Origin: an uncultured Bacteriovoracaceae bacterium
Lineage (GTDB): Bacteria > Bdellovibrionota > UBA2428
Assembly: GCA_964407615.1 (NCBI GenBank)
Contig: CAYOWH010000001.1
Span: forward strand, 85,171-149,170
DNA length: 64,000 nucleotides
Direction of reading: 5' to 3'
The notes below the pieces were generated by a model. It saw nothing but the letters and a program-made list of their open reading frames with translations, was not told where the DNA came from and searched no databases. Of the stretch, positions 1 to 55,886 are shown one piece after another (position 1 is the first letter of the stretch; every line of letters begins with the position of its first letter). The translations under genes and the position numbers were made by a program.

Positions 1-2964
1 ATGATAGATATGTATCGAAATAAAAAAGGTTTAATTTTAGGTGCTGATAAAAAGACAGAACATTTCAATTTGTTAAAAGAATTATTCTATGAAACCGAAT
101 CAGAAGTATTCGAAAAATACAATCCTATATTTGGTACATTCTTTCAAAACCAAGATAAAATAGAAGGATTAAGTGATTTACAATCTAATTTTAAAAATTT
201 AAATTCTCAAATAAAAAAATTAAATGAAGTGATCTCAAAAGTAGATCCTACTGATGCAACTAAAATTGAAACTTTAAATAAAGAATTAAAAACTTTAAAA
301 ACAAATAAACAAAATTTATTAAAAACTGCTCCAGCATTTAAAAAATATTTTGATATTTTAAACAGCAAAGTTGGTGAGTATTCATCTGTTGACATGAATA
401 CTACTGGAAAAAGTAATCTTTTAAATAATTTTTTTAAAATAATTACTGAAGAATTTTTTGAAAATGAAGATAGTATTACTGCTAGATCTAGAAGATTAGA
501 TTTTGATAACGAAATCCATAATTTAATAAAGACAAGAGTATATGATCGGCAAAATACAAAAAACTTTTTAAACTATTCTTTATTAAACAGAGTTGAAGCT
601 ATAAAGGCTTCATATAAAAACAGTCATAGTTTCTTTGCTCCTTTATTAGAGCGTGTTGAAATATTTGGTGCAGAATTCTATCATGCAATGCAAGGTGCAA
701 CTATGCAAGGTGATGAATTCAACACTCTTGCTAGATCTATAGATTATAATCCATTCTTTAGAAGATTAGGTACTGTATTTGCTGGTGGTTTTCTGTTACA
801 TTCGGTATTGACTGGTAGTCTTTTAGGAACAATGGAAAATCCAGGTGAATTAAAAGAAATATATAGTGGTAATAAATTTGTTGATGTTAGGAAAGGTAGA
901 TTTTGGGAAGGTGGTGGTTTACCTTATGAAGGCTCTGATGTTTTGTATTCAAGGCCTCATGCATATCATTTATTAATGACAAGAGCAGAAGAAAAATCTG
1001 TTTGGGGTGAAGAAGACGAATTATACAACCCAATATCTAAATGGTTCTTGAAGAACTTTACCTATCATTTAGAAGAGAAACATTTTTATGATAGACCTTA
1101 TCCTATTTCTGGTGTTGCTTTTGAAAACGTTCCAATATTAGGACCTATCTTAGCTCACACTATTGGTCGCTTAATTAAACCTGCAAAAATAATGCATGCT
1201 AATGAATACATGCGTGTAAATGATAATAATGAATTAGAATATTATTATCCTCCTGAAGTTGGTACTACTAAAGAAATAGGTGGTACAACGCCAAATGGGC
1301 CACCAATATCTCCATATGAAGGGAAATTATTGCCAGGAAAAATTCAGTATCAATTTAGAGAATTAGAAGGTTTAACTGGTTGGGTGAAAAATATGATACA
1401 GAAAACAGTAACAGGTAGAGAAATCTATGGTACTGATTATCCTGTACTAGCTAGTGCAAATCAAATGGACTCTTCTATTGCAGCTTTTTGGGACAAAGAT
1501 TTAGGTGGTATGATGTTTATGTCTGAAGCACTTAGACGTTTATATCCAAGACCAAAAAAAGAAATAGAACAATATAATCCAATTACTAATACGATGCCTT
1601 CTTGGATGCCTGATAAATTTAGAAGAGGCGACCCATATACAAAAATACAAAATGCTTATGCTAGACTACCAGGTGAAGGTTTTGAAGCAGTATTCCCCAT
1701 GCTTCAAGGATTCGAACCTGAAGATTATCCAGATATTTTTAAATATAAAATATTAGCTGATGTGGATCCAACTTCTAGAGAAGTTGTTAAGTTGCGAAAT
1801 CAATTGTATGAAAGAAGAGCTGCTGGAATCACTAGTGAATATGAAAATAAATTAATGGATGTAGTTGCTGAATCTCATGCAAAAGTATTAGGTATGCAAG
1901 AGTTTAAAGGTTATGAAAATCAAATAAAAATACCTGTTTTATCAGATATAACTCAAGCAGGTTATTATCAATTAAAAGAAGGTATTCGAACAGTTGCTCA
2001 ACCTATTGAATCTATTGTTCCTTTTGGGTTTAGACCTGCACAAAAATTACTTGGTGGAGAAAGAGATGCAATTGATCAATATGAATATGAGAGATTGTAT
2101 GGTACACAATTAGCTTTCTGGGATAAACCAATTAGAGACTGGGTTAGACCGGCTTTCTATTCTGGATTAAATGCTTTAGGTTGGGAAGGCAAGCCAAGCT
2201 ATGTACAAGATAGAGAAGCTCTATCTAAACAATATGATCAATTGAACTTCTACAAGTTCATGAATCTTTCTCAGCAAGCGGGTAGCATGTATGAGAAAAA
2301 ACAAATGATGGCACAAGCTGCAAAAACTCGTGCAGGTGTGAATCCTTATGGTGATCCCTTAAGTATCTATATGTCTTTACCTACTGAAGAGAAGAAATTT
2401 TTTGATGCATTTGCAAATGCACAAGGTTCTGAACGAGATAGAATTTTAGAAATGATTCCTGAAGACCAACAACATTTATATGAAGGTCTATGGAGTAATT
2501 TAGATGCAGGTATAGATCCAACTTCTTTAATTGAAGAAAAACCAAAATATGATGAACAATATTTGCAAGAACAATATTCTAATTTAGACATGGGAGAATA
2601 TCCTATGCCAGAACCAGATTGGGTTGGTTGGAATAAAGAAGTTGACATCAATGATATTAAAGTGAATTATGTTGCTTCTTTAGGTGATGAAATGAGAGAT
2701 TATGATCTCTGGGATTCTCAAGTTAGACGTGTAAAAAGACATCATGCTTTAAATAAAGCACATGAATTCATGTATGAAGAATCTTTTTCAAATAGAGGTC
2801 TTGTAGATTCTTTATTGAAATATTCAAATCCTTATGAAAGATTAAATAGTAATTTTACTGTTAATACTACAAGTGATTTTCAAAACCGAACACAATTAAT
2901 GTATAATGATGATAGACAAAACGAAATAAATGCATTGATTAACTCTTATAGAAGTGGATACTAA
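1..2964 (+). CDS. Large hypothetical virion-block protein (987 aa; may extend upstream of the window)
   Basis: Uninterrupted ORF starting at window base 1. One hydrophobic helix (TVFAGGFLLHSVLTGSLLGTM). Its stop context TAATAATGA abuts the start of the next megagene, so both are in one operon. I recognised no family. Confidence 0.6.
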   Translation: MIDMYRNKKGLILGADKKTEHFNLLKELFYETESEVFEKYNPIFGTFFQNQDKIEGLSDLQSNFKNLNSQIKKLNEVISKVDPTDATKIETLNKELKTLKTNKQNLLKTAPAFKKYFDILNSKVGEYSSVDMNTTGKSNLLNNFFKIITEEFFENEDSITARSRRLDFDNEIHNLIKTRVYDRQNTKNFLNYSLLNRVEAIKASYKNSHSFFAPLLERVEIFGAEFYHAMQGATMQGDEFNTLARSIDYNPFFRRLGTVFAGGFLLHSVLTGSLLGTMENPGELKEIYSGNKFVDVRKGRFWEGGGLPYEGSDVLYSRPHAYHLLMTRAEEKSVWGEEDELYNPISKWFLKNFTYHLEEKHFYDRPYPISGVAFENVPILGPILAHTIGRLIKPAKIMHANEYMRVNDNNELEYYYPPEVGTTKEIGGTTPNGPPISPYEGKLLPGKIQYQFRELEGLTGWVKNMIQKTVTGREIYGTDYPVLASANQMDSSIAAFWDKDLGGMMFMSEALRRLYPRPKKEIEQYNPITNTMPSWMPDKFRRGDPYTKIQNAYARLPGEGFEAVFPMLQGFEPEDYPDIFKYKILADVDPTSREVVKLRNQLYERRAAGITSEYENKLMDVVAESHAKVLGMQEFKGYENQIKIPVLSDITQAGYYQLKEGIRTVAQPIESIVPFGFRPAQKLLGGERDAIDQYEYERLYGTQLAFWDKPIRDWVRPAFYSGLNALGWEGKPSYVQDREALSKQYDQLNFYKFMNLSQQAGSMYEKKQMMAQAAKTRAGVNPYGDPLSIYMSLPTEEKKFFDAFANAQGSERDRILEMIPEDQQHLYEGLWSNLDAGIDPTSLIEEKPKYDEQYLQEQYSNLDMGEYPMPEPDWVGWNKEVDINDIKVNYVASLGDEMRDYDLWDSQVRRVKRHHALNKAHEFMYEESFSNRGLVDSLLKYSNPYERLNSNFTVNTTSDFQNRTQLMYNDDRQNEINALINSYRSGY

Positions 2965-2966
2965 TA

Positions 2967-5900
2967 ATGACAAATCCAAGTTTAATTTATAATGTTTATA
3001 AAAAAGATACTGAAGAGCGTCGTGCTTTTGCAAGGAATAGTTTTGATGTTTTAAAAACTATTGGTGGTGCTTCTTTTGTTTTAGGTGCAGGTTATTTAGG
3101 TTTTGCAAATGATAATCCTGATATGAAAAATCCTATCCCTGGTGTTAAGAATTTAACTAATTTTATGAATTCTAGTGGTAGAAAAGAAGACAAACCTTTA
3201 CCTACCAGAAAAATTGGTAAGGCAATTAGAGATCGTTCAATTAGTGATTATCAAGCTAGAACTGCATTAGCTAAAGAGAAAGCTAAAGAAGTAACTTTAA
3301 ATCTTTTTGATGAAATGAGTAATGTAAATGCTAAAGATAAATTAGATGAAATTTTAGCTGCTAAAGAAAATCAAAGAATAACTCATTTATCAGTAATTTT
3401 AGATATGATAAACGATCCAGAATTAAACTTAGACGATGAAGCTAAAGGTAAATTAATTACTAAAGTAAGAGGTGCAATTGAAGATTCTTCTCGAATGAGT
3501 GATGCAGATAAAGCTGATATTGCTGGGTTTTTAGATTCAATTCGAAGTAATAAAACACTTGAAGAAAAATATGTCAGTCTGCATCAAAAGAATTCTAATG
3601 TTGCACATTTAATAGCAACTAGTTCTAAGAGAGCAAATAATGGTGCAAATTCTCTTTTAACAAATCCTTTTGAAACTTTTAGTACTCAAAAAAATGTTAA
3701 TACTATCTATTATAGACAAAATTTAACTGAATCTAGTTTGCAAGATGATGCAATGTGGAGTATTTTTAAAGACAAAAGCAATCAAGTACAAAACACAGTT
3801 TTAAACAGATATAGAACTATAAGTGATCATTTAAGATTAGGTAACAACAATTCAAATTTTAAGATTTCTTTTGATATTATTAAAGAAGCAAACGAAGATG
3901 CATATGGGGTTTATGCAAGAATTAGTTCTACACATAATAGAGCTTCCAATCAGCCATTAATTATACCTTTAATGGCTGCAGAAGGTCAACATGGTAAATA
4001 TGTTAGATTATCTAGTGATTATGGTAATGCTAAAGTTGCACATAATCATTACTTTGATGCAGCAGATTTTGCTGAAGTAAGTAAAGGTCAGAATCTTGCA
4101 GAAAAACAAAAAATAGCCAGAGATATTTTTAATAAAAAAATGCCTACATCTTCTTTTGAAGACTTTGCGATTAATTTATTAAAAACATATTCTAGTAATG
4201 ATCTTCACTATATGAATCAAGCAGAAAGAAATTCTTTTATGGAAGTTCTTTCAGGGTTAACTCAATACTACCCTACACATGGTCAAATGGATTTTGGATA
4301 CACTGGTTTGCAACAAAAACATGGTATTCAGATCATGTCTAATACTGCTTACTTTTTTAATAAAGGAGCTACTGGTGGAAAATTTCCAGTTGATTTAAAT
4401 GAATTAGTAGCTTTAAATATTGGTATATTTGGTCCTGCGCAAGGTCAAGCAGGTACAATTCGAAAAGAATTAAAGAGTACTTCCTTTGAACAACAAGCAG
4501 TGATACTTGACCCAAATGTAGTACTTGGAAAACCTGGTGCGAGTCCTGCTATCATACCTTATAATATAGCAAGAACACATGGTATCAAAGATCAATCGTT
4601 ATTGCCTGGTTCTGCACGTATCGCACAGTTGTTTGCAAAACCTGAAGCTATGCTTGGTTATTTTCCTGCAAATACCAAATTTGAAACATTTGAAGAGATG
4701 CAACAGCAAATTAAAAGTTCAAGTTTTGGTAGAACTGGAGCAATTAAAACTTCTGCAACTAAAGGTAGGGACCTTTTAGTAGTTGGTAAAGAGTTTCAAA
4801 ATTTAGATTTAGTAGGTGCAAATACTGGGATTATTATTGATTTTAATAGTAATGCAAAAAAAGGTCAAAGACTAGGGTTGGCAGATGCTATGCAATATAG
4901 AGGCGGTATGCATTTAATTTCTGAGCCTTTACAGAAATCATTTCAATATACTCAAGGAATGACAAATCTAAGTCTTTATGAATCTGATGTTTTTCAAAAA
5001 ATATTAGCTGGAAAAGAAGTTAATTTATTTGGCGAAGAATTAGAAACTTTCTTTAAAAATTATGGAGATAAAGATGGAAATCTAGTTTTAGGTTTTAAAG
5101 ATAACATGCCTACTTTGATAAAAAAACAAAAAGGTATGATGGGTTTAAAGTTAAAAATGAATACCAATGTCAATACTGAAAGAACTGGTATGTTTAGTAT
5201 TGCTGGCGAAATGTATGGTGCACATGAAGGTAAAATATTTTCTGAAGCTGTTAAAGGTGTTTTCTTTGGTGAAGAACAAATACTTGATGAAGGCGGTATG
5301 AAAAATGTTTTAGCGCAGGCTTTATATAAAAAAGATCCAGTTACTGGAAAATTTATAAATAGAGAAGCTGCAATGTTAGAAGCTAGTCATTTTTTTGAAC
5401 ATACTTATATGAAAACATTTGGTGGTAAAATTGAAAGCACTATAATTGCAGGTATGGATATTGTTACAAAAGGGCCTCAATATGCATCTTCTCTTCTGTA
5501 CGGCTCATTGAAAATGTTAGGTTATGAAGATACTTTTATTGAAAACAATATTTTTAATATGAAAGGTAAAATTCAAGCTGCTGAGATGGATACTAAAGTA
5601 AAACCACATGCAGTTAAATATCAAACAATTATTGCTGAGAATATTATTGAAACATTCTCGAATTTAATAGCAAGTAGTACCAGCTTGCCTACTGTTGCTG
5701 GTGGCAACGCTCAACCAGTAACTCCTGAAGTTTTAGGTAACTTGTTAATTCCTGCATACCACAATTTAAAAGAACCAGCAACTGAACCTGGTCAAAAAGC
5801 TGTTGCGTTTAAAGATCAATTGAAAGGACTTTTAGCAAACACTAAACTTACTAAAGCACAACAAGAAGTAGTTCTTGAAACCGCCGATCGAGGTTTTTTT

Positions 5901-8900
5901 ATTGGTGCATTATCTACTTTTGCAGGTACGCAATCTACTATTAATAAAGACAGAATGGCTAGAGTTGAACCTCGTTTTGCTAACTTTGTTATGGGGAATT
6001 TAATGGGTATGTTTCAGATGTCTGAAGATGAAGCTGCAGAATATATGGCAGAATTATTTTCTAAACAATCTGGCGTTGCTGAAAAAGCACAAGCAATGAC
6101 GCCATTATTATTAATGGGTCAATCATTGCATCCTAGCATGGATCAAGGTGCGTTGAAACATTCAATTGATGATTTTGTTGGTCAAGGTTATTTATTCAGA
6201 GCAGATGAAGAATTCACTAAAAAGTTTTTAAGAGCAAATGTAGACGTTGATTCAGCGACTGCTTTGAGTAATTTTTTAAAAGAACAACAAGAATTAAATC
6301 CTCAAGCTATGGGGTTTGTGTTAGATATTCAACAAATGTTTGCTAGAGGTGTTGAAGGTAATGAAAATATAAATACTGCAGCTTATCAAAGTTTTTTAAA
6401 ACAAATTGGCGAATCTAAAACCGAACTAGTAGTTCCTTTAAGTAATGTATTGGATGTTGTTTCTGGTGTAGAAATTAAAAGTAATCAAAAAGATTTGAAG
6501 ATTGAATCTGAGTTATATAGAAAGGTAAATGATATTTTTGCTTTTTTAAGAGAGTCTGCTGTTTCAACTGAAGAAGTCGATCAAACTAATAAAGTTAATC
6601 AAGCTATGTACCATGTTAAACAATTGCAACATATGTTAGGTGGTATGCAACGACAGATTTTAGCTGGTAGAATGTCTGGTTCTGCAACGCTAGAAGGTAA
6701 GGGCGTTCGTTTAGGTGATCCTGAAAAAGATCAAATTACTAGATTTGTAAGCGATGATTTAGATAATGCTAAAATTCTTCAAAAAATGAATGCAGCTTTT
6801 ATTGAATCTAATGGTTATAATATGTTTTTGGATACGCAAGCATTTATGTATGCTAGTAAAACGTTTAATGCACAAGATCCAACAGAAAAACGAGAATTAT
6901 ATAAAAAGTTTTTATTTGGTATGGAAGAGGATGTCTTGCAAATTTCAGATGGAACTATGAGAATAGTAAATAGTTTAGAAAATGGAAGTTTTAAACCTCA
7001 AGGTATTTCAGGTATAAATTTTCGTAATCCACAACTTGGTATGTCTCACATTGCTTTAAATATTGATATGTATAAATATATCGGAGAGAATCTGCCTGAA
7101 TCTCATTACTCTGATGTATTAAATTATAATACTAGAGGGCAAATATTTTTATCTTCTCTTTCTGAATTCATGGGTAACAATCAAGATTTCAGAAATAAAT
7201 TAGCTAATAGTGGCGGACAAAATGTAATTGATTATATTGATCAATCTAAGAAGGCAGCTGCAGATATTAATGATGCTTTTTCATTTTTAAACTTTAAAAG
7301 TTTAAATATTTTAAATCAGTTAAACAAAACCGGCATATTCAAAGACATGAAGTTTGATTTTCAACAAACTACAATGGAATATTTAACTAGTAAAAAAAAT
7401 AAACTAGAAAGTAACGTTTTTAATTTAAATGAAAGAATTTTCAATTTACAAACTGCATATCAAAGAAATGTAAAAGGTATTGAAAATACTTTAAATTCTA
7501 ATGTAATTTCAAGTTATGAAAATCTTCAAGAAAGAATAGCAAAAGCAAGATTCTTTTCAAATCAAAAGCAACAAAAGCAAGAACGTTTAGCTGGGAATAT
7601 ACAACAAAAACAAGATTTTATTCAAACTTTACGACAACAAAGAAGTGAAATGCTTAAAGGTAATTTTTCTTATACTAGAATAAATAAAGATACTAATGTT
7701 GAAGAATCAGTAGATAGAGTAGGAAAAGGGTTTTTAAATTATTATAAACAAAAATCTTCTAATATAAAAGATATCAAAAATGATAGGAATCGAAGACTTC
7801 AAGCAGGCAGGTTATTAGGTAAGGATTCTAGATATGCTTATAACAGTTTAAACCCTAACATGACGTTAGATAGTACAGGGACTTCTTTTGAAAATGTTGG
7901 AGATCAAATAAAAAGAACTGATGCTTTAGATAGATATTATAGAGGATATGGATATGACAATACTTATGAAGAAGCTATAATTAAAAATTATAAAGAAATT
8001 GATCTTCAATCTCATAGATTAAAATTACTTTTGACGCAAAGTAAACGTAGTAAAAGTAATTTAGAAAAACTAACTAAACAACGTGATTTTCAAAAACTAA
8101 TTATTAATTCTTTTGGTGGACATGAAGAAGAAATTTTAAGTCAAATTGAAGTATTACATCAAAGTGGAAAAAATAAAGGAAAGCCTATGCTTGATAAGTT
8201 TGGTAAACCTATTTATAAAACCCAAACTGAGAAATTTTTAAATTTAACAATCATACATCCTGATTTTCCTATTACAAACAAAGAGATTGTTGAAACTTTT
8301 GGAAGTCATGAATTTTACAATAGAACAAAAATAAAAGAGTTTAATAAAGTATTTGAAAGCATGAAAGATACCATGCAATCAGATGAAGCTAATGCTTTTT
8401 TTAAGAATAAAAAAGCAAGATTAAATTTATTTGATTTCTTATATGAGATGAATAATTCTGATTTAAGTTCTGAAGAAAGAACACAACTTGAAAACAAAGG
8501 ACTTGGTCGTGCTAGAGTTGCTAAAAGATTTATACCATTTATAGATTCTTTAGATGATGATGCTCAAAAAGTTTTTTATGAGCATGATGGATCTGATTTT
8601 TTAAAAGACTCTGAAGGTAACAAAATTAGAAAAATCATAACTTTTGATAGGGAATCAAAAACTGTAACTAGAAACGGCAAAGAAAGAACTTATTCTGGGT
8701 TTAATTATATAAAATATAATATTGAAAATATTGATGAGAATGGAAATTTAATTGATTACGCAGACCCTAATGATCCTAATAAAACTATTGTAAAACATAT
8801 TTCTGACAAAAATAAACAAGTAAGTGTAAATAGCAAAACAGTATATACTTATTTAGAAAATTATATTCAACAATTAAGTAGTGATCCTACCGAACATTCA

Positions 8901-11900
8901 GATTTGAATGATAATCCTATTTACAAAGCATTTTTCAAAATTTTTAATTATAAAAAAATGAATGAAAAAGCTAGTAGTATTAATAAAGAAATCAAAACAT
9001 TACAAGAAGCATATGTTCATTTTGGGTATTCTCCTGCACTAGCTGAAGATGTCATACAAAAAGGATTAAATAGATTTTTAAATGATTCTAAACTGTATCG
9101 AGAATCATTAAAAGAAAATTTAAATTTAAAGCGTCCAATAAGTCCTACTGAAATAAATAGCCAAGCTATTAGTGATATTTTTGCATTGCAAGATTTTGGT
9201 TTACAACAAAATAGAACTTTAGGAGTTGATACTGATCAATTAGATTTATTAGAATTGCCTAGATTTTTACATGAAATCAAAGATGATTTTGCTGAATTAT
9301 TATTTACTTCGGATCATTTTAAGCGTGATGCATCAGATAATTTTACAGCAATGACTTATGATGAGAATGGAAAATTGATACCATTCTCAAAATTACATAA
9401 ACAAGAAAAGAAGAAAGCGATTGAAAGTTTGTTTTCTTTTGTAAAAACATTAATGGAAGATCCAATTGTTCCAACCACAAATCATTTTCATGCAACTTCA
9501 ATGCTTTTTGATCTATTAGAGAATCTAAAAGAAGGTAAATACCAAGATCAAATAACTAATACAAGTAATTCTGAAGCAAAAATTCAAGAATTTACTTTAA
9601 AAAAACAATTTGTAGAATCAATGATTCAAGGGAAAACAAAAGGTGCAAATAACTTTGTAAATTCAATGTTATATTATGCACAATCTATAATTCCCAAAAT
9701 GCTCATACGGGAAGAACAAGAAATTTATCAAGCTCGTAAAGATTTTCTTCAATCGTTTTTTAGCGATGAATATGATTATCATGTTGTTGATGATGAAGGT
9801 AAATTTGTTAGAAATATTACAGATTCAGACGAAGACAAAGCTTTAATTAAAGCTTTTCAAGATAATTTAAAACAGAATCCAGATCAAACAACTTTTGGTA
9901 AAATATCTGCTACTCGATTAATGAAACCTTTTGAAGAGTTAGATGATGATCAAAAAGAGTTTTATAAAAATCATTTAGAGAATAAAGTAGAAGAGGCTTT
10001 AGGTGAAAAACAAAAGAAAGCACTTTCTAAAGTAAAAATAAACAAAGGTTATGAATTAGGACCTGATGGAAAACCTGATAAAACGAAACCTATTTATTAT
10101 GATGAAAGCAAACAATACAGTACTTTAGAAGAATTAGATAAAGATATATCTAAATACGAAGCAGAAGAAAGAACAAAATATAAAGTAGGGCGCATTAATA
10201 AAAATACTCAGTTAATTAAAGAAGAAGAAGATAAGTTAGCTACTTTACAAGAAAAAGCAAAAGAAGCTAGACAAGAAAGAATTAATATTGATTTATCTAT
10301 TGATGAATTAGAAAATAATGGTCTAAGTCGAAAAACTAGTGCAAATTTCTATTATGAAGAATTAGCTTCTGATTTTGATGAGTATGATACTGATGGTAAT
10401 ATAATAAAAAAGGGAGAACTTAAAGATTTAGCAAGAGATACTGAAGGAAAGGTGATACTTGATTCAGAAGGTAAACCTACATACGTTAATGCACTTGATG
10501 AAGTGGGGATGCCAATTACTTCTAGACAACCAGAAACTTTTCTAGGTAAATCGAATATAATTTTAGGATTAGAAGCTTTTACTGAAGAAGAAGAAATTAA
10601 TTTAACTAAATATAATCAAGAAACTGATGAATCAGAAATTGTTTATAAAACTAATTACGATCCTGAAACAGGTACACATATACCAACTGATGAACCAGAG
10701 AGAATAACTGTAAAAAAAGTAAATAAAGATTTATTAAAGAACTTTATTCGTGCGCATAATTATTTTACAGAAATGGATGAACTTATTTATCATGATTTTT
10801 ATCATGAAGAAGATGAAGCATATTATGTAGAGCATGATGATGTACGTACAAAACAAGAACAATTATTGGAAAAAGTAAGAAATAATGAAGACAATCTTTT
10901 GCAAAAATTAGACGATTTTGAAGATGGAAATACTGAAAGATTACTTTATAAACCAATTCTTCGTTCACCGGGAGATATGGATTTAACAACTTTAGAGCAA
11001 AATGAAAAAATTGAAAAATTACAAGGTTTTATAGAAGAAGAAAATGCTAAAATATCAGAGATAGATAATAAAATAGCAAATGTAGATTTAAATGAAGAAA
11101 AACAATATCATAGTTTAGATGATATTATTAATGAAGCTGTAGATCTATATGATCAGAATTATACAAGAGCTACTGGTTTAGGTGCTGGTAGAGCAGTGTA
11201 TCCTGAATTTGAAACTACTTTTAAATTTGAAAATACAAAAGATCCATCTAATACTTTTGATATAAAAGTACGTACAGATATATCTAGAGCTGCAGTTGGT
11301 GACTTTGACGGTGATATTTATCAAATCATTTTAAATAATGAAAAGACTAGTAATGCATTTAAGGGACAGATACAACGCAATGTAAGAGAAATGCAAAAGA
11401 CTGGTGCAATGATGGTCGTCAACATGGAGATTGCAAAGAAAGCAATGTCTAAAGTTGCAGAAAGAATGGATGTCGCCAATATTACTTACCAAGATTTATT
11501 AAAATCAGAATCTTCAAAAGAAAGAATTCTTAAAGCTGGTACTGGTTCTGTTGACGTTGCCGTTAAAAAAGTAGCAGTTGGTGCAGCTTATAATTTAGCT
11601 AAAGGAAATATGAATTTAAATGATTTTAGAAAAACAGATTTAGCAGCACAATTATTGATTTCTGCTTCTCAAGAATCTGTTGTTATTAAATCTAAATCAC
11701 TTGATTTAGCTACAAACATTGGTGAATTATTTACTCAAACATTAAATGAAGCATTTAAAACAGGTGATACAACTAAATTTGAAACATTTATGAGAGATAC
11801 AGTTTTTAAAGATACTGATTTCTTAAATGATTTGATGGTAACAAAAGTCAGTGTAGAGAATATGCCAGAGCCATTAGCTAGTGCATATACAGAAGGTTTA

Positions 11901-12632
11901 AATAAAGAAAGAATTACATTTAATTTTGATGATATTTTTGAAGGTTTAAGAAACATTATCAAAACTGTAAATCAACAAAATTTAAGTCCTTATGCATCTG
12001 ATAATATGTTAGGCGCTTTAATGAGCGCCGGTAACAATAGACGTTTTACAAATGAAGATTATTTAAAACTTGTTAGAAATTTTGATGTTTTAGAAGCTGC
12101 AGTAGGTTCACAAGGATTAAGTACTCCTGAACAACAAGCTCTATTTGAGAATCTATTAGGTGTTAAAAAATCTAGTGTTTTGAGTATGGTCGGCGATAAT
12201 ATTGCTAATTTATCCAATATGAAAATGACTGCTGCAACTGCTGCAATTGTTGGGACATCATATTTATTATCATCTTCATATGATACAGAAGAACTTAGAC
12301 CAGAAGAAATATTTACTGATACTAGAGTTAATGAGAAAATTAGAAATAGAGAATTAGCTCAAGTACAAAATTATAATTCAGATGTATCGGTTTCTCCAGA
12401 TTCTATGCAGAGACCTTTTTATAAAGATATGGTAGGTAGAGTTCAAAGTCCAGGCAGTACAATGCTTGCTAGAAACCAATCATATTTAATTAAAGGAAAC
12501 GTTAGAAATATTGAAGAAGCAAATTATATGAACAAGATTGCTTTGCAAAATGGAGGTAGTTCAAGTATTATGATCAATGATAACCGCAAACCATTAACTG
12601 GTGGTTATCTTGATCAACTTATGGGAGAATAA
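2967..12632 (+). CDS. Giant virion/ejection-type megaprotein (3221 aa); candidate double-psi-beta-barrel RNA polymerase and/or tape-measure-like ruler
   Basis: Single 9.67-kb ORF. N-terminal hydrophobic helix TIGGASFVLGAGYLGFA (about nt 3058-3111). Globular region to about aa 1450. K/E/N/D/L-rich helical low-complexity region at about nt 7300-11130. C-terminal region carries GRAVYPEF...ISRAAVGDFDGDIYQIIL and another hydrophobic helix (about nt 12219-12285). The function is inference. Confidence 0.55.
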   Translation: MTNPSLIYNVYKKDTEERRAFARNSFDVLKTIGGASFVLGAGYLGFANDNPDMKNPIPGVKNLTNFMNSSGRKEDKPLPTRKIGKAIRDRSISDYQARTALAKEKAKEVTLNLFDEMSNVNAKDKLDEILAAKENQRITHLSVILDMINDPELNLDDEAKGKLITKVRGAIEDSSRMSDADKADIAGFLDSIRSNKTLEEKYVSLHQKNSNVAHLIATSSKRANNGANSLLTNPFETFSTQKNVNTIYYRQNLTESSLQDDAMWSIFKDKSNQVQNTVLNRYRTISDHLRLGNNNSNFKISFDIIKEANEDAYGVYARISSTHNRASNQPLIIPLMAAEGQHGKYVRLSSDYGNAKVAHNHYFDAADFAEVSKGQNLAEKQKIARDIFNKKMPTSSFEDFAINLLKTYSSNDLHYMNQAERNSFMEVLSGLTQYYPTHGQMDFGYTGLQQKHGIQIMSNTAYFFNKGATGGKFPVDLNELVALNIGIFGPAQGQAGTIRKELKSTSFEQQAVILDPNVVLGKPGASPAIIPYNIARTHGIKDQSLLPGSARIAQLFAKPEAMLGYFPANTKFETFEEMQQQIKSSSFGRTGAIKTSATKGRDLLVVGKEFQNLDLVGANTGIIIDFNSNAKKGQRLGLADAMQYRGGMHLISEPLQKSFQYTQGMTNLSLYESDVFQKILAGKEVNLFGEELETFFKNYGDKDGNLVLGFKDNMPTLIKKQKGMMGLKLKMNTNVNTERTGMFSIAGEMYGAHEGKIFSEAVKGVFFGEEQILDEGGMKNVLAQALYKKDPVTGKFINREAAMLEASHFFEHTYMKTFGGKIESTIIAGMDIVTKGPQYASSLLYGSLKMLGYEDTFIENNIFNMKGKIQAAEMDTKVKPHAVKYQTIIAENIIETFSNLIASSTSLPTVAGGNAQPVTPEVLGNLLIPAYHNLKEPATEPGQKAVAFKDQLKGLLANTKLTKAQQEVVLETADRGFFIGALSTFAGTQSTINKDRMARVEPRFANFVMGNLMGMFQMSEDEAAEYMAELFSKQSGVAEKAQAMTPLLLMGQSLHPSMDQGALKHSIDDFVGQGYLFRADEEFTKKFLRANVDVDSATALSNFLKEQQELNPQAMGFVLDIQQMFARGVEGNENINTAAYQSFLKQIGESKTELVVPLSNVLDVVSGVEIKSNQKDLKIESELYRKVNDIFAFLRESAVSTEEVDQTNKVNQAMYHVKQLQHMLGGMQRQILAGRMSGSATLEGKGVRLGDPEKDQITRFVSDDLDNAKILQKMNAAFIESNGYNMFLDTQAFMYASKTFNAQDPTEKRELYKKFLFGMEEDVLQISDGTMRIVNSLENGSFKPQGISGINFRNPQLGMSHIALNIDMYKYIGENLPESHYSDVLNYNTRGQIFLSSLSEFMGNNQDFRNKLANSGGQNVIDYIDQSKKAAADINDAFSFLNFKSLNILNQLNKTGIFKDMKFDFQQTTMEYLTSKKNKLESNVFNLNERIFNLQTAYQRNVKGIENTLNSNVISSYENLQERIAKARFFSNQKQQKQERLAGNIQQKQDFIQTLRQQRSEMLKGNFSYTRINKDTNVEESVDRVGKGFLNYYKQKSSNIKDIKNDRNRRLQAGRLLGKDSRYAYNSLNPNMTLDSTGTSFENVGDQIKRTDALDRYYRGYGYDNTYEEAIIKNYKEIDLQSHRLKLLLTQSKRSKSNLEKLTKQRDFQKLIINSFGGHEEEILSQIEVLHQSGKNKGKPMLDKFGKPIYKTQTEKFLNLTIIHPDFPITNKEIVETFGSHEFYNRTKIKEFNKVFESMKDTMQSDEANAFFKNKKARLNLFDFLYEMNNSDLSSEERTQLENKGLGRARVAKRFIPFIDSLDDDAQKVFYEHDGSDFLKDSEGNKIRKIITFDRESKTVTRNGKERTYSGFNYIKYNIENIDENGNLIDYADPNDPNKTIVKHISDKNKQVSVNSKTVYTYLENYIQQLSSDPTEHSDLNDNPIYKAFFKIFNYKKMNEKASSINKEIKTLQEAYVHFGYSPALAEDVIQKGLNRFLNDSKLYRESLKENLNLKRPISPTEINSQAISDIFALQDFGLQQNRTLGVDTDQLDLLELPRFLHEIKDDFAELLFTSDHFKRDASDNFTAMTYDENGKLIPFSKLHKQEKKKAIESLFSFVKTLMEDPIVPTTNHFHATSMLFDLLENLKEGKYQDQITNTSNSEAKIQEFTLKKQFVESMIQGKTKGANNFVNSMLYYAQSIIPKMLIREEQEIYQARKDFLQSFFSDEYDYHVVDDEGKFVRNITDSDEDKALIKAFQDNLKQNPDQTTFGKISATRLMKPFEELDDDQKEFYKNHLENKVEEALGEKQKKALSKVKINKGYELGPDGKPDKTKPIYYDESKQYSTLEELDKDISKYEAEERTKYKVGRINKNTQLIKEEEDKLATLQEKAKEARQERINIDLSIDELENNGLSRKTSANFYYEELASDFDEYDTDGNIIKKGELKDLARDTEGKVILDSEGKPTYVNALDEVGMPITSRQPETFLGKSNIILGLEAFTEEEEINLTKYNQETDESEIVYKTNYDPETGTHIPTDEPERITVKKVNKDLLKNFIRAHNYFTEMDELIYHDFYHEEDEAYYVEHDDVRTKQEQLLEKVRNNEDNLLQKLDDFEDGNTERLLYKPILRSPGDMDLTTLEQNEKIEKLQGFIEEENAKISEIDNKIANVDLNEEKQYHSLDDIINEAVDLYDQNYTRATGLGAGRAVYPEFETTFKFENTKDPSNTFDIKVRTDISRAAVGDFDGDIYQIILNNEKTSNAFKGQIQRNVREMQKTGAMMVVNMEIAKKAMSKVAERMDVANITYQDLLKSESSKERILKAGTGSVDVAVKKVAVGAAYNLAKGNMNLNDFRKTDLAAQLLISASQESVVIKSKSLDLATNIGELFTQTLNEAFKTGDTTKFETFMRDTVFKDTDFLNDLMVTKVSVENMPEPLASAYTEGLNKERITFNFDDIFEGLRNIIKTVNQQNLSPYASDNMLGALMSAGNNRRFTNEDYLKLVRNFDVLEAAVGSQGLSTPEQQALFENLLGVKKSSVLSMVGDNIANLSNMKMTAATAAIVGTSYLLSSSYDTEELRPEEIFTDTRVNEKIRNRELAQVQNYNSDVSVSPDSMQRPFYKDMVGRVQSPGSTMLARNQSYLIKGNVRNIEEANYMNKIALQNGGSSSIMINDNRKPLTGGYLDQLMGE
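11301..11315 (+). other. DFDGD motif (aa 2779-2783 of the 3221-aa protein), RNAP beta-prime/YonO/RdRP-like metal-binding signature
   Basis: Codons gac ttt gac ggt gat are in frame. The flanking pattern R-A-x-x-P...hydrophobic strand...AAVGDFDGD resembles NADFDGD of the beta-prime double-psi beta barrel. Confidence 0.45.
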
Positions 12633-12634
12633 CC

Positions 12635-13849
12635 TTGGCTGGTTTAAACTTAAATAAAGAAATTATCAATAGAGATTATTTTGAATATACTGGTAAAATG
12701 ACTTTTTCAGAAGTAAGTAATCATTTACGAGAATTAGGAGATAATACAGGGTTTATTTTAAACGACATATTATTTCCTATACCACCTATTTCTATTCAAA
12801 TTCAAAAAGATAATTTTAATTGGGGTTACAAAACACTAAGATCTAAGACTACAACGAAAATTGTATCTGGTAGAAGTAGTGTTGGTATTCAAATCAAATT
12901 ACTATTTAATAGAGAAATGATTTTAATGTTGCATCGTTTAATTATTCAAATAAGGAACAATCCTTTTGTATGGGTGAAAAATGATTACATTAAGAATTCT
13001 ATTTTAGAAATAGATCCTAATTTAGGTTTAGATCCATCCAATCCAACTAATCTTTTTTGTACTGTAGTTGGATTTAGAATAAGTTCTTATCAAGCCGGTG
13101 TATCTTCTTTTGAAGCAGAATTAGATTTAAAATATTTCAATTATTATCCTTATTCTCCAAATTTAATGTTTAGAAAAGAATTGGAATCTTTATTGATTCC
13201 AATTTCGGATATCAAATTCTCAAGTTTTGTGTTTCCTGTTTTTGATACTAGAAGACTTGCGCAAATAAACTACACTTTAACTAATCAAACTAACACTCAA
13301 GCTGCAACTACTGAAACAAATTCAACTTCTGATTCTACTAAAAAAGAATCAGAAACATACTTTACTTCGATGTATAGAAACTTAAAGAAATATAACTTTT
13401 CATTGAGTGTCAGAGAACCTTACTTTAGCAATGTATATGTTAGATACTATAATTACTTACAAATAAAATCTTTAACTGAGAACTTTGGAATAAATTGTGT
13501 TGATCGATCTATTTTTACAAAAGAAGAAATGTTACTTTTAGAATCAGGTTTAATAGGAGATAATTTTCAAAATTTAGTAATTGGAGTTCATTCAGCATAT
13601 TTACCAGAATACATTAAAATTAAATTAATTTTAAAGATGCTAGAAAAAGATTTAAATATGAAAATTTACTGGAATCAATATTTCTATTTAAACTTACCAG
13701 GAGAAGTATTAAAAAGATATCGACAAGAAATTTTGGATGGTACTGAAAAGATTAATGATGTTGAGCAAAGACAAAAGAAAATTCTTGAAAATCAAAAGAA
13801 AATAGCAGATGCTTTGATTAAAATTTCGAAAGAAGAAGGTGTAAAATGA
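12635..13849 (+). CDS. Hypothetical tail/baseplate-associated protein (404 aa), TTG start
   Basis: The ORF begins with TTG, 6 nt after a GGGAGA Shine-Dalgarno-like sequence. Its end overlaps the next start as ATGA. N-domain, T/S/N-rich linker (TNQTNTQAATTETNSTSDSTKK), then C-domain. It sits between the two megagenes. Confidence 0.6.
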   Translation: MAGLNLNKEIINRDYFEYTGKMTFSEVSNHLRELGDNTGFILNDILFPIPPISIQIQKDNFNWGYKTLRSKTTTKIVSGRSSVGIQIKLLFNREMILMLHRLIIQIRNNPFVWVKNDYIKNSILEIDPNLGLDPSNPTNLFCTVVGFRISSYQAGVSSFEAELDLKYFNYYPYSPNLMFRKELESLLIPISDIKFSSFVFPVFDTRRLAQINYTLTNQTNTQAATTETNSTSDSTKKESETYFTSMYRNLKKYNFSLSVREPYFSNVYVRYYNYLQIKSLTENFGINCVDRSIFTKEEMLLLESGLIGDNFQNLVIGVHSAYLPEYIKIKLILKMLEKDLNMKIYWNQYFYLNLPGEVLKRYRQEILDGTEKINDVEQRQKKILENQKKIADALIKISKEEGVK

Positions 13850-16800
13850 ATGAATTAGGCGTTAAAGGATTAATGACTGCAAAAGAATGGCAAAAAAATC
13901 AACATCTTACAGATGCTGATTTTGGCGTTCCCACTGGTATTCAAGAGATTTTATATTTTTTTAAATCTAGTGTTGGCGAAGGAGAAGATAAAGATAAGAT
14001 AGTAGCAAAAGAGAACACTAGTTTTTTCCTTAATCAATTATCTATTTTAGAAAAAAAAATAAGAAAGACTATCATTATTGCTGAATATTCTTTCGGTTGT
14101 TATCCTTGCAATAATGGGTTCTATACTTTATTTGGCAACAAATTTGTAAATAATGATGCAAGAGACTTAAATGGAAGTAACCAATACATTGAACGTCCTT
14201 TTTATATTGATTCAGAAAAGAAAATTTTAATAGACTTTTTAAATCCTGTTTTTTCTTCTTCTTCTCCAGATTCTGCAGAATACTCTTTGTCTTCTTTTAG
14301 CAAAAAATATTCTATTAACTCCAATGAGGATTATCGAAAGTATTTAAAAAATAATTTTATTTTTATTATTTTTTATTCTTATGAATTCAGCTCTATAGAA
14401 TCTTTAACTAATTCTCAGTTAGATTTTTTTGCTATTGATAGAATGTCAAATAAATTTTTAAAAACTGGTTTATCTCAATACTACTATTTTAAAGACTCAC
14501 AATTAAAACATCTTTTTAACAAAAAAGATCCAAACGATGATAGTCAAAAATTGTATTTTGTTTACGGTACAGATAATAAAAGTCCAATGACACAAGGATT
14601 TTCGATTTATATTTCTAAAATAAAAGGCAATCCAAATTTTACGGAAAGACTTGCTACTCCACCTACAAGAGATATATTTGATCCTGCTTCCTTTTTTAAT
14701 AAATATAATGATTTGCAAAAACCAAATGTAACAAAAGAAGAAGCAGAAGAAAGAATAAAGAAATTTTTATTTACTTATTTAGGTATTACTGCTCCTAGTA
14801 TAAGTGCGAAACTTGACGGAGAATATTATGATATTGAAAACGAAATTATTATTCCTCCTAATCAATTTGCTAATATAATGGACAAATCCTTAAAAGCAGA
14901 TCGATATGGCACTAAAGGAGATCCAGATGCTGTAGATTCTCTTACTAAAGGGATTCCTGGATTTTTTAAGAATAAATCCATCCCCAGTCCTTTTGTAGGA
15001 ATTACTAATATAATAATACAAGAAATTCTTACAAAAGAAAAAGTAACTGGATATCAAATTTCTAAATTTACTATTAACGAATTTGATTTTTCAAAAACAT
15101 CCGATGAAGTAAACCAACTAATAGCTTCTAATTATCAAGCTTTTTTAAAAGAAAATTATAATGTAATTGCAAAAAGTTTTTATGAGACTTTCTTAAAAAA
15201 AATGTTAGAGATATCTCCTCCAGAAAAAAAAGAAATAATAGAACCAGTTGCAATTGTACCTGAATTAGCTACTCCTGAACCACCTGCACCTGCTCCTCAA
15301 CCTGAACCAGAACCAATAGTTGCTGCACCTCCTCCACCACCTCCGCCACCTGAACCTGAAATAAAGCCTGTAGTAGAAGAACCCAAACCTGTAGAGCCTT
15401 GGCCATTAAAATATCTAACTAAAGAAGATCTATCTAATTTTAAAGAAATAAATTCAGTATTAAATGGAAATGAAACAGAATCTCCATATCAACCTTGGCT
15501 AAATAAAGATTATATTTCAAACATATTTACAAAAACAAAAGTTTTACCATTAACTATCGAAGATGGTCTTGATTTTAAAACAAAAGATAATGTTTTAGTT
15601 TCTGTTTCTGGCGGTATCAATTCTTTAACTGCAAACATCCCAATTCTAGGACAAGCATATCCTACTACACAATTTCTAAGTAGTATGGAACCTAACTATC
15701 AATTAAATCTAATAGCTTCAAATAATATGCATGCAAATGGTTTGGAAGATTCGGCAAGTGATCTTCCAAATGCAATTAAGCGTTTGGAAGAAATAAATAC
15801 TACAACACTTCGAACAGCCAGAGAATATAAGTTTGTACCAGATGGTTCTAGTATTTTAGTAGATTCTTTTATTACTAGATTATTTGGTTCATTTAAAGAA
15901 GAGTATGTAATTTTAGAAAACCTAGATGATGCAAACAGCTACTATGTTACTTTAAAAAAACCTATTAATATTGAAAGTACAGAATATAGAACTTTAGAAT
16001 CTAACCCTGGTGCTTCTGCATACAGTATGCGTTTAAGTGAAACCAATGTATATGATCCTGAAGTTTTAAAAGAAGTAACGACTAATAAGAAATTAAAAAA
16101 TGATCAATTATATAATGAAGTTGTAAATTATGCTTTGATGAATTGCGATAGTTCATCTTATATGAATAGATTTGTAGACACAAAAGAAAACATTCTTGTA
16201 AATAATATTGAAACTGGAGATGTTTTTGAATGGCAAACTAAATACTTTAAATCTTGGGACTTTTTTGGTCAGTATCTTAACAAAAAAGATGAGCTTAAAA
16301 AATTATTAGAAGAAAAACAAATTGCAAGGATTGTAAATCTTAACCTTTATGATTTAGCAAGCACATACTTAGATCCTTTATTTGAAGAATTAGCAAAAGA
16401 CGCAAATTTAGCTAAATTTTTTAAAGGAATTAAAATAACTAGTGGTTTTTCTACAGATGAAGATGATACAAGAACTACTTTTTCTCAACATTATTTTGGA
16501 TCTGCTGTTGATATTGTAGTACCCAATTTTAATGCTTTGCATATTGTGAGAATATTACAAAAAATATCTAATACAGTAAATCGTAAAATTGGTATTGGAG
16601 TTTACGGGAACGATATTTTGAAAAAAAATTATTACAAAGGAATTGAAACTGATGTAGCTGACTTAACATGGTGTACCGTAATGGATGGTCAAAAAGCTAC
16701 AACAGGTTTTGTGCATGTTGATTTAAGATTAAATATGTTAGATCAATTAGAATATGATTCAAAATTAGAAACCTATGCAAATTCAAATAATACTACTGTT

Positions 16801-25595: not shown

Positions 25596-26837
25596 ATGCG
25601 AATACAAAATGTTGATGTTGCTAGATACTCTTCTAGTTTGAGAACAAGAATAATGGAGTCTCTAGGTGCGGAAAGTAGTTATACTAGTGATTCTCTAATA
25701 AATATTATATCAGAAGTTTTTAGTCAAGAATCTGCAAATTATGTAAATCAATTAAATACAGTTTTAGATTCAATGTCTGTTTTAAATGCTAAAGGTAGCT
25801 CACTTGATACACTTGCTTATTCCATGTATGGTTTAAGTAGATATCCTGCTAGAAAAGCAAATGTAAAGGCTAGCGATTATAATATTTATTTTACAGTGGC
25901 TAGAGGAAAAACTAGTTTTGGTGATATAAATGATGGAGCTTCTATCACTATTCCTGCGGGTACTATTTTATCTACAAACGGAAGTATAAATTCAACTGGA
26001 AGCATTAGATACGTTGTTTCTAGTAATGTAGTTTTAAGTTCGAATTCTAATGTAGGTTATGTATCTGCTATAGCAGTTGGTGCTGGTAAAAGCTTTAATT
26101 TAAACAAAGGTTTAAATTATCATGATTTTACAAATTATTATGATTTTGAAAATAACACGCTTTTAGTTTCAAATACTTACCCTATTTTAAATGGTTCTGA
26201 TGCAGAAACAGATGAGAATTTTAGATTTAGAATAATGAATCATTTAAATTCATTAAAATTTACAAATTATAATAATGTTTTATTTAGTAGTTTAAATATA
26301 CCAGGGATTATTAATGTCAAAATAATAAACTCTTATTTTGGAGTAGGTACTGCAGCTGTAGTTTGTTTTGGACAAGCAAAGCAATCGAATACTGAATTAG
26401 TTAAAAAAGTTCAAAATATATTAGATGCGAAAGATTCAAATAATTTTCGTTTTATAGCAATTGAACCTAGAAGACTAAATCTCGATATAAAAATTACATT
26501 AAATCTTTCTAGAATAGATTCTACTGATGAAATTAAAAATAGAATTGAAAATGCAGCTCAAGAAAATGTTCTTAACTTTTTTAATCAGAGAATTGGAGAA
26601 AACAATTATTTGCTTTCTGAATTTCACAATTCTTTGATTGATACTATTAATCGATTTTTAGTTAAACCAATATTACCTTCTAAAGATTATATACCCGTTA
26701 TCAACGCCTCAAAAGTATCTAACAACGATATTATAGAGCAATACTCTTTAATAAGAATAAGTGATGATATCTTTTTACAAGATGATGAAATGGTAGATGT
26801 CGCTAAAATAACTTTTGATTTTAAGTTAAAGGATTAA
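25596..26837 (+). CDS. Baseplate J-like protein (XkdT / gp6 / P2 gpJ family)
   Basis: 413 aa. N-terminal LINIISEVFSQESANYVNQLNTVLDSMSVLNAKGSSLDTLAYSMYGLSRYPARKANV fits the Baseplate_J signature (A.G..LD.LA...G..R..A..A). Synteny after the gp25-like gene supports the call. Confidence 0.6.
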   Translation: MRIQNVDVARYSSSLRTRIMESLGAESSYTSDSLINIISEVFSQESANYVNQLNTVLDSMSVLNAKGSSLDTLAYSMYGLSRYPARKANVKASDYNIYFTVARGKTSFGDINDGASITIPAGTILSTNGSINSTGSIRYVVSSNVVLSSNSNVGYVSAIAVGAGKSFNLNKGLNYHDFTNYYDFENNTLLVSNTYPILNGSDAETDENFRFRIMNHLNSLKFTNYNNVLFSSLNIPGIINVKIINSYFGVGTAAVVCFGQAKQSNTELVKKVQNILDAKDSNNFRFIAIEPRRLNLDIKITLNLSRIDSTDEIKNRIENAAQENVLNFFNQRIGENNYLLSEFHNSLIDTINRFLVKPILPSKDYIPVINASKVSNNDIIEQYSLIRISDDIFLQDDEMVDVAKITFDFKLKD

Positions 26838-47784: not shown

Positions 47785-47816
47785 ATTTATATGCTTTACT
47801 TTTCTTGGAGGCTGCC

Positions 47817-48140: not shown

Positions 48141-48150
48141 GGAAAATAAT

Positions 48151-48375
48151 ATGATAGATCCCCAGAATAAATATGATGCTGTTGTTTTAAATAGAATAAG
48201 CAATTTAGAAGAAAGAGTTAAAGATTTGATGATTGCTCATCAAAGGTTTGTATCTCTTACCCAAGTACAAGAAATCTATTCTGTATTAGTTACAGAAATT
48301 GAAAAGTTAAAAACAACTGTCTCGTCACTTGAGAAAAGAGTTTCAATACTAGAAGACCTTCCACCTATCGACTAG
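48151..48375 (+). CDS. Small coiled-coil protein (74 aa)
   Basis: AAGGA RBS before the ATG. Its N-terminus (DPQNKYDAVVLNRISNLEERV) echoes that of the preceding ORF (DNQKYTDPTQVLLDYRVGQLENKI). It is the last plus-strand gene. Confidence 0.6.
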   Translation: MIDPQNKYDAVVLNRISNLEERVKDLMIAHQRFVSLTQVQEIYSVLVTEIEKLKTTVSSLEKRVSILEDLPPID

Positions 48376-49432: not shown

Positions 49433-49433
49433 A

Positions 49434-55866: not shown

Positions 55867-55886
55867 ATTCGAGTCCCTTACATGTT

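Follow-up and report, generated by a model that had tools for sequence, protein, structure and literature searches.

A candidate two-barrel virion RNA polymerase in the tape-measure slot of an uncultured phage with a contractile tail

Results

A giant cysteine-free protein with an invariant DFDGD motif

The window, that is, the whole 64-kb stretch of DNA analysed here (contig CAYOWH010000001.1, positions 85,171 to 149,170, filed under an uncultured Bacteriovoracaceae bacterium), is phage DNA: it holds a Baseplate_J/gp6-like gene, tail-fibre-like genes and minus-strand replication genes, and the minus-strand genes encode a prohead protease, a primase-helicase, a DNA polymerase and nucleases. 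Its G+C content is ~24-33% in 2-kb windows. Within the tail module lies an uninterrupted open reading frame (ORF) with an ATG start (2967..12632, plus strand, as are all features of the protein and its neighbours below), encoding 3221 aa with no cysteine and a single tryptophan (W264). The pentapeptide DFDGD, located by the first-pass annotation at aa 2779-2783 (nt 11301-11315), is found there in the ORF translation, and a six-frame scan returns it as the sole D.DGD of the window. DFDGD is the putative Mg2+-binding triad of a double-psi β-barrel (DPBB) of the RNA polymerase (RNAP) type, and the protein is probably a previously unannotated relative of the virion RNAP that is fused to a phage tape measure. 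No second ORF with a polymerase-like [RK]xP...DxDxD arrangement is present in the 64-kb window.

With the ORF's own composition, DFDGD has a probability of ~8.8e-7 per position, and ~0.02 occurrences are expected over ~21,000 coded residues, in agreement with the 1-2% estimated earlier. A chance motif in a low-complexity giant ORF would have this ~2% expectation in its favour. The estimate is superseded because the three aspartates (D2779, D2781 and D2783) are invariant in 83/83 full-length relatives; their constancy at a fixed position in such distant homologues, along with four other hallmark positions, refutes chance as an explanation and leaves it a negligible probability.

The relatives come from an exhaustive HMMER search with aa 2690-3221 as query, which returned 121 representatives. 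In every one the module either occupies the C-terminal end of a protein of 1650-3265 aa or forms a fragment or stand-alone protein of 480-610 aa. All are metagenomic, on contigs of up to 194 kb, and lack functional names, a few being labelled 'hypothetical protein'. Word-indexed searches found only the close relatives P0001, P0002, P0003 and P0004, with P0001 alone for the C-terminal and the alignment queries and three proteins for the N-terminal query. P0001 (959 aa) is 73% identical to the window ORF (~95% over the last ~490 aa, ~55% over the preceding region), and the first ~1500 aa have 39-41% identity to P0003 (2184 aa). No match was obtained among 50,697 GenBank phages when the ORF, P0099, P0028 and P0008 were searched with megablast and tblastn.

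Conservation was read from an alignment of 83 full-length members (1644-3265 aa) that share only ~17-25% identity. Besides the triad, R-x-P (R1353, P1355) is present in 82/83, the remaining one having K-x-P (R 98%, P 100%). The pair K756..K763 occurs in 79/83, with three K..R and one misaligned sequence (K756 98%, F758 98%, K763 95%), R551 in 82/83 (98%) and Q554 in 83/83 (100%). Invariant or near-invariant positions also include G709, K835, E1001, R1003, G1238, F1293 and F1315 before the triad, and K2851/E2852, G2860, E2903, K2908, K2910, D3205, R3207 and P3209 after it.

A putative catalytic barrel interrupted by a long insertion

The β′-type barrel (DPBB-A) is predicted to be built from two distant segments. 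The first half (aa 1345-1372; 6999..7082) consists of a strand, the sequence F-R1353-N-P1355-Q-L-G-M-S-H and another strand. It is supported by conservation, by AlphaFold2 (AF2) strands at aa 1347-1352 and 1362-1370 with a predicted local distance difference test (pLDDT) score >90, and by alignment to gp96 of Thermus phage P23-45, the sole experimentally characterised polymerase within a tape measure, where it forms a contiguous N-terminal domain (Chaban et al. 2024, PMC10770324). The second half (aa 2741-2790; 11187..11336), supported by AF2 elements with pLDDT >90 and by hhalign, comprises two extra strands, a strand, a short helix (ISRA), the loop G-D2779-F-D-G-D2783 carrying the triad and the strand IYQIIL; judged by eye, this is the order of the E. 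coli β′ segment.

The two halves are separated by a lineage-variable insertion (aa ~1373-2740; 7083..11186), recognised from alignment occupancy and family spacing. It is charged and rich in K, E, D and N, its occupancy in the alignment is ~0.1 over most of its length and 0.2-0.5 at the edges and near aa 2500-2600, and its identity to P0001 is ~55%, against ~95% for the module that follows. The length range of the family arises almost wholly from this single segment, which separates RxP from DxDxD. R1353 and D2779 are 110 to 1493 aa apart (median 128; 110-151 in compact relatives; 1426 in the window protein), while K763 and R1353 lie 465-603 aa apart in most members (771-775 in one subclade), and 411-457 aa separate D2779 from the C-terminus in all members except one, apparently truncated. 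The filter of Chaban et al. for two-barrel RNAPs, [RK]xPx{20,100}DxDxD (PMC10770324), admits spacings of 20-100 aa, and the spacing of this family falls outside that range; motif filters requiring RxP within 100 aa of DxDxD therefore miss the family, whose spacing is at least 110 aa. Immediately before its catalytic loop, the β′-type barrel has a known insertion hot spot, and in the window protein this site, judged from the sequence, is enormously enlarged.

The long middle segment had been described as a ~1250-aa coiled coil separating two barrels. A family-variable charged insertion does exist (aa ~1400-2740), but a coiled coil is supported neither by a crude 3.5-residue heptad periodicity test, which was negative, nor by AF2; and instead of simply separating two barrels, the insertion interrupts the β′-type barrel, R1353-N-P1355 standing 1426 aa before DFDGD. 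A first AF2 model of aa 2262-3221 with two sequences gave a pLDDT of 36 and low confidence across the insertion. BLAST finds no internal protein repeats in it, and it has no tandem DNA repeats. Nine D-x-x-G-[KN] motifs (0.8 expected) are scattered over aa 1583-2503 (window ~7700-10500), such as DKFGKPIY, DSEGNKIR, DENGNLID, DENGKLIP, DDEGKFVR and DSEGKPTY, which suggests small β-hairpin modules scattered among helices.

In one relative, on contig L001 (JGI Ga0194133_10000132), gene calling splits the homologue into two ORFs (2184 + 545 aa) at 10001-18364. Between them stand one in-frame TGA and then 56 sense codons, and the break lies inside the insertion of the β′-type barrel. TGA also terminates another gene on this contig. 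A sequencing error, readthrough or a true two-piece enzyme could each account for the split.

The candidate partner barrel and the remaining domains

Two conserved basic residues on the second barrel are the other hallmark of two-barrel polymerases. A β-rich domain at aa ~616-770 (4812..5276) is a candidate β-type barrel (DPBB-B) by conservation (N619, G641, G646, G709) and by AF2 strands at 618-625, 642-645, 650-662, 685-688, 706-718, 724-752, 756-758 and 763-766, with pLDDT mostly >80. At its end lies K756-I-F-S-E-A-V-K763-G764 (5232..5258), which bears the near-invariant lysine pair; the pattern K756-x-F-x4-K763-G-[TV] resembles the 'KG[TV]' β4 motif of DPBB-B in gp96, gp64, QDE-1, β and PolD, as given in a published structure-based alignment (PMC10770324). 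The partner site first proposed, GEMYGAHEGK, is found at aa 747-756 (nt 5205-5234) and contributes K756, one of the two near-invariant lysines, but its other residues are unconserved. Its alignment as the counterpart of GDKxxGRHGNKG in that register was rejected, the conserved element being K756-x-F-x4-K763-G764.

Ahead of this domain, the motif P-x-x-A-R551-x-x-Q554 (aa 545-560; 4599..4646) marks a candidate duplex-binding helix, so labelled solely for its position relative to the gp96/β alignment (PMC10770324 suppl. Fig. 8). The inter-barrel connector (aa 771-1344; 5277..6998) is mostly helical and contains the invariant E1001-P-R1003, G1238, F1293 and F1315. After the triad follows a helical module (aa 2791-3080; 11337..12206) with the invariant K2851/E2852, G2860, E2903, K2908 and K2910, whose long helix (aa 2884-2911) is a candidate bridge helix. 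The order of barrel B, connector, barrel A and helices is that of the single-chain enzymes. The conserved C-terminal tail (aa 3104-3221; 12276..12632) has the pattern ...RPxNxGxT...IND-x-R-x-P-[IL]-T-x-x-Y-[IL]-D-x-L-x-G-E, with D3205, R3207 and P3209 conserved in >90%.

Hydrophobic helices had been noted at both termini. Both segments are present and conserved: the N-terminal one (aa 31-47; 3057..3107) aligns with P0003, and the C-terminal one (aa 3087-3103; 12225..12275) has the consensus GxxGSxALGA. They are weak and Gly/Ala-rich, however, with a Kyte-Doolittle 19-residue mean <1.5, below the threshold for transmembrane segments.

Structure model and fold comparison

The core was modelled by AF2 from a construct that fuses aa 600-1455 to 2705-3048, using an alignment of 57 compact relatives. 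The model has a mean pLDDT of 78.2 and a predicted template modelling score (pTM) of 0.84; confidence is low only at the insertion stub, reaches 85-88 near K756/K763 and is above 90 at both R1353-P1355 and DFDGD. Around the triad the elements follow one another as strand 1347-1352, the R-N-P loop, strand 1362-1370, the insertion, a helix, two strands, strand 2763-2769, short helix 2772-2775, the GDFDGD loop, strand 2784-2789 and long helices. Apart from the insert and the two extra strands, this order matches that of the β′ barrel. The pTM suggests that the two barrels pack together.

Among the best 50 of 141 matches (E <= 10) in a Foldseek search of the PDB, 11 are RNAP largest subunits. The top matches include the non-virion RNAP (nvRNAP) of AR9 (E 0.28 and 0.55), Pol II Rpb1, Pol I A190 and the β′ subunits of Taq, Tth and M. 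smegmatis. The fold check proposed by the first-pass annotation thus yields a confident model with a β′-like element order, while the matches to solved RNAPs stay below significance (E >= 0.28). Against BFVD, significant matches are A0A7R7G2L5 (E 2e-7), an 'uncultured Caudovirales' protein (E 7e-7) and a protein of Microcystis phage Ma-LMM01 (E 3e-4); A0A172Q021 of Acinetobacter phage ME3 is matched at E 5.4e-5 with a template modelling score of 0.44 on the target. After these uncharacterised phage giants come RNAP subunits of nucleocytoplasmic large DNA viruses (NCLDV) and related large-DNA viruses, at E 0.5-1.7. The matches A0A7R7G2L5, A0A7J4 (Microcystis phage Ma-LMM01) and A0A8S5SD80 are giant phage proteins; one of these giants, from a cultured cyanophage, is annotated 'PLD phosphodiesterase domain-containing' and another 'minor tail protein'.

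The barrel might instead belong to a cell-wall-degrading DPBB enzyme of the MltA, RlpA or 3D-domain type. Such enzymes carry conserved aspartates on a DPBB fold, and tape measures commonly carry lytic domains. This origin is very improbable here: the protein has no Pfam match to the 3D, DPBB_1 or transglycosylase families, a contiguous G-D-x-D-x-D loop preceded by RxP is an RNAP signature, Foldseek gives RNAP subunits and not lytic transglycosylases among the matches listed, and the lytic domains of the module sit in the hub gene.

Similarity to P23-45 gp96 and other two-barrel polymerases

A barrel-A profile was made by joining the columns of aa 1338-1376 and 2758-2800 from the 83 sequences. 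With hhalign, this excised profile matches aa 733-789 of gp96 in the full 1299-column alignment of the gp96 family (E 1.6e-4, probability 50%), spanning RNP and DFDGD in register, and the next match has an E of 0.74; against the excised gp96 region the probability is 85% and the E 6e-6. The gp96 barrel reads 'FTFRNPVMGHGG' ...35 aa... 'GVDFDGDTLVVLP' and the window protein 'INFRNPQLGMSH...' and '...AAVGDFDGDIYQIIL', the F-R1353-N-P1355 segment aligning to 'FTFRNPVMGHGG'. The first-pass annotation assigned DFDGD to an RNAP-type DPBB and placed a candidate partner barrel far upstream, beyond a long segment; this core idea is supported by the motifs, the family conservation, the confident model and this profile match, as far as sequence and prediction can tell.

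Like the window protein, P23-45 gp96 is a giant Cys-free protein in the tape-measure position of a tail, and a single chain with F-R-N-P-x-[LM]-G ... G-x-D-F-D-G-D; its barrel B precedes barrel A, as is predicted for the window protein. Detectable similarity is confined to barrel A. P23-45 is a siphovirus, and in gp96 the first 1,100 aa form an uninterrupted polymerase, after which come ~3,900 aa of tape measure that include a metallopeptidase, whereas the polymerase-like core of the window protein spans the whole chain, its RxP and DxDxD 1426 aa apart instead of ~35, and the peptidase and transmembrane segments of the window phage lie in a separate hub gene.

With the β′/β RNAPs (E. coli RpoC/RpoB, AR9, phiKZ) the protein shares the NADFDGD-type loop after a short helix, RxP at the barrel start, two lysines in the (here candidate) partner barrel and the insert hot spot just upstream of the catalytic loop. 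It differs from them in being a single chain, in having no recognised clamp, zinc or flap elements, in an insert ~10-100x longer and in Foldseek values of E >= 0.28. The single-chain enzymes phi14:2 gp66, QDE-1 and YonO likewise place barrel B before barrel A, and gp66 is also large and virion-associated. The specific link to YonO, QDE-1 and crAss gp66 drawn by the first-pass annotation did not hold up, as there is no sequence signal and no fold match among the matches listed. Structure-based comparisons set the P23-45 enzymes apart from the gp66/QDE-1/YonO group (PMC10770324).

The protein might instead be a two-barrel enzyme of another activity, namely an RNA-dependent RNA polymerase (RdRP), a primer synthase resembling primases or a DNA polymerase of the PolD type that is delivered along with the genome. 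RdRPs (QDE-1) and PolD both belong to the two-barrel superfamily and have the same barrels, and the data do not distinguish template or product. Nevertheless, the sole profile match is to a DNA-dependent virion RNAP with FRNP...DFDGD, the PolD catalytic loop differs (read as '...CDGDED' in a garbled row of a published supplementary alignment), and the window encodes its own primase-helicase and DNA polymerase. Such an activity is improbable.

The gene occupies the tape-measure slot of the tail module

Upstream of the giant ORF lies a gene cut by the window start ('slot A'; 1..2964), which encodes at least 987 aa without cysteine and is homologous to ME3_35 (E 6e-47) of Acinetobacter phage ME3 and to the virion protein gp145 of Bacillus phage 0305phi8-36 (E 1e-18). 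Downstream ('slot C'; 12635..24279) is a split hub of the gp147/gp27 type with lytic domains and transmembrane segments, matching ME3_37 (E 2e-19), gp147 (E 2e-13) and phrog_20474 (E 6e-41); the earlier placement of the ORF just upstream of a hub is thereby confirmed. Its two pieces, 12635-13849 (404 aa, TTG start) and 13846-24279 (3477 aa), overlap by 4 nt. The 404-aa ORF is the N-terminal piece of a hub that is a single gene in contigs L004 and L012, and the 3477-aa ORF has several transmembrane-like segments and weak matches to Peptidase_M15 and endolysin families. Further on, a library match identifies a Baseplate J/gp6-like wedge protein (25596..26837), because of which the module is assigned to a contractile-tail baseplate.

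In 0305phi8-36, gp147 is a gp27/gpD-type hub, and gp146 has been assigned as the tape measure by its length and is a virion protein by mass spectrometry. The giant ORF, here slot B, lies in the tape-measure slot, since the genes on either side are homologues of gp145 and of the gp147 hub. A gp145 - X - gp147 order recurs on seven contigs as well as in ME3 and 0305phi8-36. On L001, tube-like genes are followed by two small genes, a gene of 1675 aa, the homologue, a gene of 394 aa and one of >3000 aa; five more contigs from distant members (L004 and L009-L012) have the same A-B-C block, some with Peptidase_M23. A measures 1360-1675 aa, B 1688-3221 aa and C, where complete, 2880-3001 aa; the C pieces of the window sum to 3881 aa. 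Slot B alone varies strongly in length, and a ruler test based on neighbouring gene lengths found A and C nearly constant, with no co-variation with B.

ME3 gp36 (ME3_36, AND75197) occupies the same slot between gp145-like and hub genes, also lacks cysteine and is the ME3 protein that Foldseek matches to the model. Its motifs K632-FFSVGS-K639, R1174-E-P and, 40 aa later, D1217-H-D-Q-D appear in the order of the family. Unlike the window protein, it has 1603 aa, a canonical RxP-to-DxDxD spacing and DHDQD instead of DFDGD, and it shows no significant sequence or profile similarity. It is encoded at 33172-37983 of L005 (Acinetobacter phage vB_AbaM_ME3, KU935715), where it is annotated 'hypothetical protein', and the ME3 genome note mentions neither a polymerase nor a tape measure. 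From its motifs and predicted fold, ME3_36 is a candidate for an unrecognised virion polymerase in a cultured phage. Whole-length comparison of the family with ME3_36 and gp145-147 gave no significant similarity, and the homology to gp146 or ME3_36 that visual inspection had suggested for the C-terminal tail was not supported.

All 83 full-length members lack cysteine over 1644-3265 aa, while other proteins of the window have 2-20 Cys per 1000 residues. Slot-A proteins, ME3_36, 0305phi8-36 gp145 and gp146 and the 5002-aa gp96 are also Cys-free; the hubs are not. This signature may reflect selection on proteins that travel unfolded through tail and envelope.

The protein could be a tape measure or tail-lumen scaffold and nothing else, its two-barrel-like core being a relic or a metal-binding module with no polymerase activity. 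The gene lies in the tape-measure slot, whose occupant in 0305phi8-36, the equally giant (2537 aa) and Cys-free gp146, lacks DxDxD and RxP; 0305phi8-36 has a separate YonO/RdRP-like polymerase, gp99. The slot gene varies in length as a ruler would, its relative P0017 has a sub-threshold Pfam TMP_3 match (E 0.022), and similarity to solved RNAPs is not significant. Yet a relic would not hold DxDxD, RxP, K..K and R..Q invariant over 83 sequences at such low identity; the module after DFDGD retains ~95% identity in a pair of relatives whose insertions share ~55%; and gp96 shows that a tape measure and an active RNAP can coexist. A pure scaffold is therefore unlikely. The first-pass annotation had treated the tape measure as a competing reading; slot synteny and the gp96 precedent make the two compatible, and probably both the polymerase and the tape-measure readings are right.

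Other features of the window and related contigs

The strand switches at ~47800-48400, between a plus-strand structural block (1-47759) and a minus-strand replication block (48365-63712), and GC and AT skew reverse at the same place. In the last plus-strand ORF of the tail-fibre block (843 aa, 45228-47759), short stretches that recur match 17 PHROG families (tail fibre, head decoration, peptidase), which suggests a repeated, shuffled domain closing the block. PHROG 9206 is labelled 'major head protein', and its members at L001 933-3272 and L006 10691-13033 are counterparts of the tail tube proteins gp140/gp141; the 0305phi8-36 record has 'major head protein' in its product field and 'tail tube' in its note, a misleading annotation.

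Discussion

The giant protein of this tail module is, on balance, probably a single-chain, two-barrel (β/β′-like) nucleotide polymerase in the tape-measure slot, with gp96 as its closest analogue. This reading draws on the motifs and their invariance, the single variable insertion, synteny, a confident predicted structure, the DPBB-A profile match and analogy; the two-barrel call deserves moderate to good confidence, and the function lower confidence. The fold of the β-type barrel, catalysis, location in the virion and a role as ruler are what we infer from these data.

Several results weigh against it. The AF2 model is of an artificial deletion construct, and a barrel split by a 1,400-aa insert might have no active fold. 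The model has no significant match to a solved RNAP in the PDB (best E 0.28), and the structures of gp96, gp66 and QDE-1 (including 6VR4 and 2J7N) are absent among the best 50 of 141 matches. The regions compared by hhalign were picked after the motifs had been seen, which makes the values supportive but not blind, and profile tests of barrel B, the Arg/Gln helix, the bridge helix and the C-terminal module against gp96 were negative. Whole-length hhalign and hmmsearch comparisons with RpoB, RpoC, gp96 (alone and in a three-member alignment with TSP4) and PDB sequences gave nothing significant: phmmer and hmmsearch with the C-terminal query found no match among PDB sequences, and the family profile drew only designed helical proteins and the small helical RicA/YmcA, none significantly. 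These whole-length nulls agree with a published remark that, outside the DxDxD region, RNAP families have little in common. Pfam, PHROGs and NCBIfam gave no tape-measure or polymerase family match for the ORF, its compact relatives or ME3_36. Finally, gp146 has neither DxDxD nor detectable similarity to the family, so that the slot argument is positional only.

In the proposed layout, an Arg/Gln helix (~545-560) would precede a β-type barrel (~616-770) that supplies K756 and K763, followed by a ~570-aa connector and a β′-type barrel with R1353-N-P1355 in its first strands and G-D2779-F-D-G-D2783 in its last. Between the barrel halves would lie the lineage-variable, charged and mostly helical insertion of ~1,370 aa, and after them a ~300-aa helical module, a hydrophobic segment and the conserved C-terminal tail. 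The Cys-free protein would lie stretched out in the lumen of a very long contractile tail, with the insertion supplying tail-spanning, ruler-like length. At infection it would exit the tail, the two barrel halves would join, and the ejected protein would transcribe the first phage genes while the DNA enters. Were the full chain to serve as a ruler at 0.15-0.19 nm per residue, by analogy with gp96 (5002 aa for ~800 nm) and gp146 (2537 aa for a 0305phi8-36 tail that we take to be ~486 nm), the tail would be ~0.45-0.6 µm long.

A bolder version places the ruler inside the active site. The tail-spanning segment within the catalytic barrel would block folding until ejection, a switch that couples activation to injection across a large unannotated clade of long-tailed myoviruses, and the split homologue of L001 would be a natural two-piece version. 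We regard this extension as doubtful, though worth stating.

In the literature on tape measures with a two-barrel or virion RNAP, only the P23-45 work was found, and a survey of jumbo phages holds that phages other than its groups 1 and 3 have no RNAP gene of their own. To date, the only known tape-measure-fused virion RNAPs are those of one narrow group of Thermus siphoviruses. If the polymerase reading is true, the same or an ancient common solution would exist in a broad clade of large uncultured myoviruses (121 clusters), with a distant relative in ME3, whose gp36 offers an experimentally tractable entry point. It would also extend the plasticity of the two-barrel fold to a catalytic barrel tolerating inserts of 110-1,500 aa and possibly a two-gene split. 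In conclusion, the family would offer a testable way to learn how long-tailed phages begin transcription without relying on the host.

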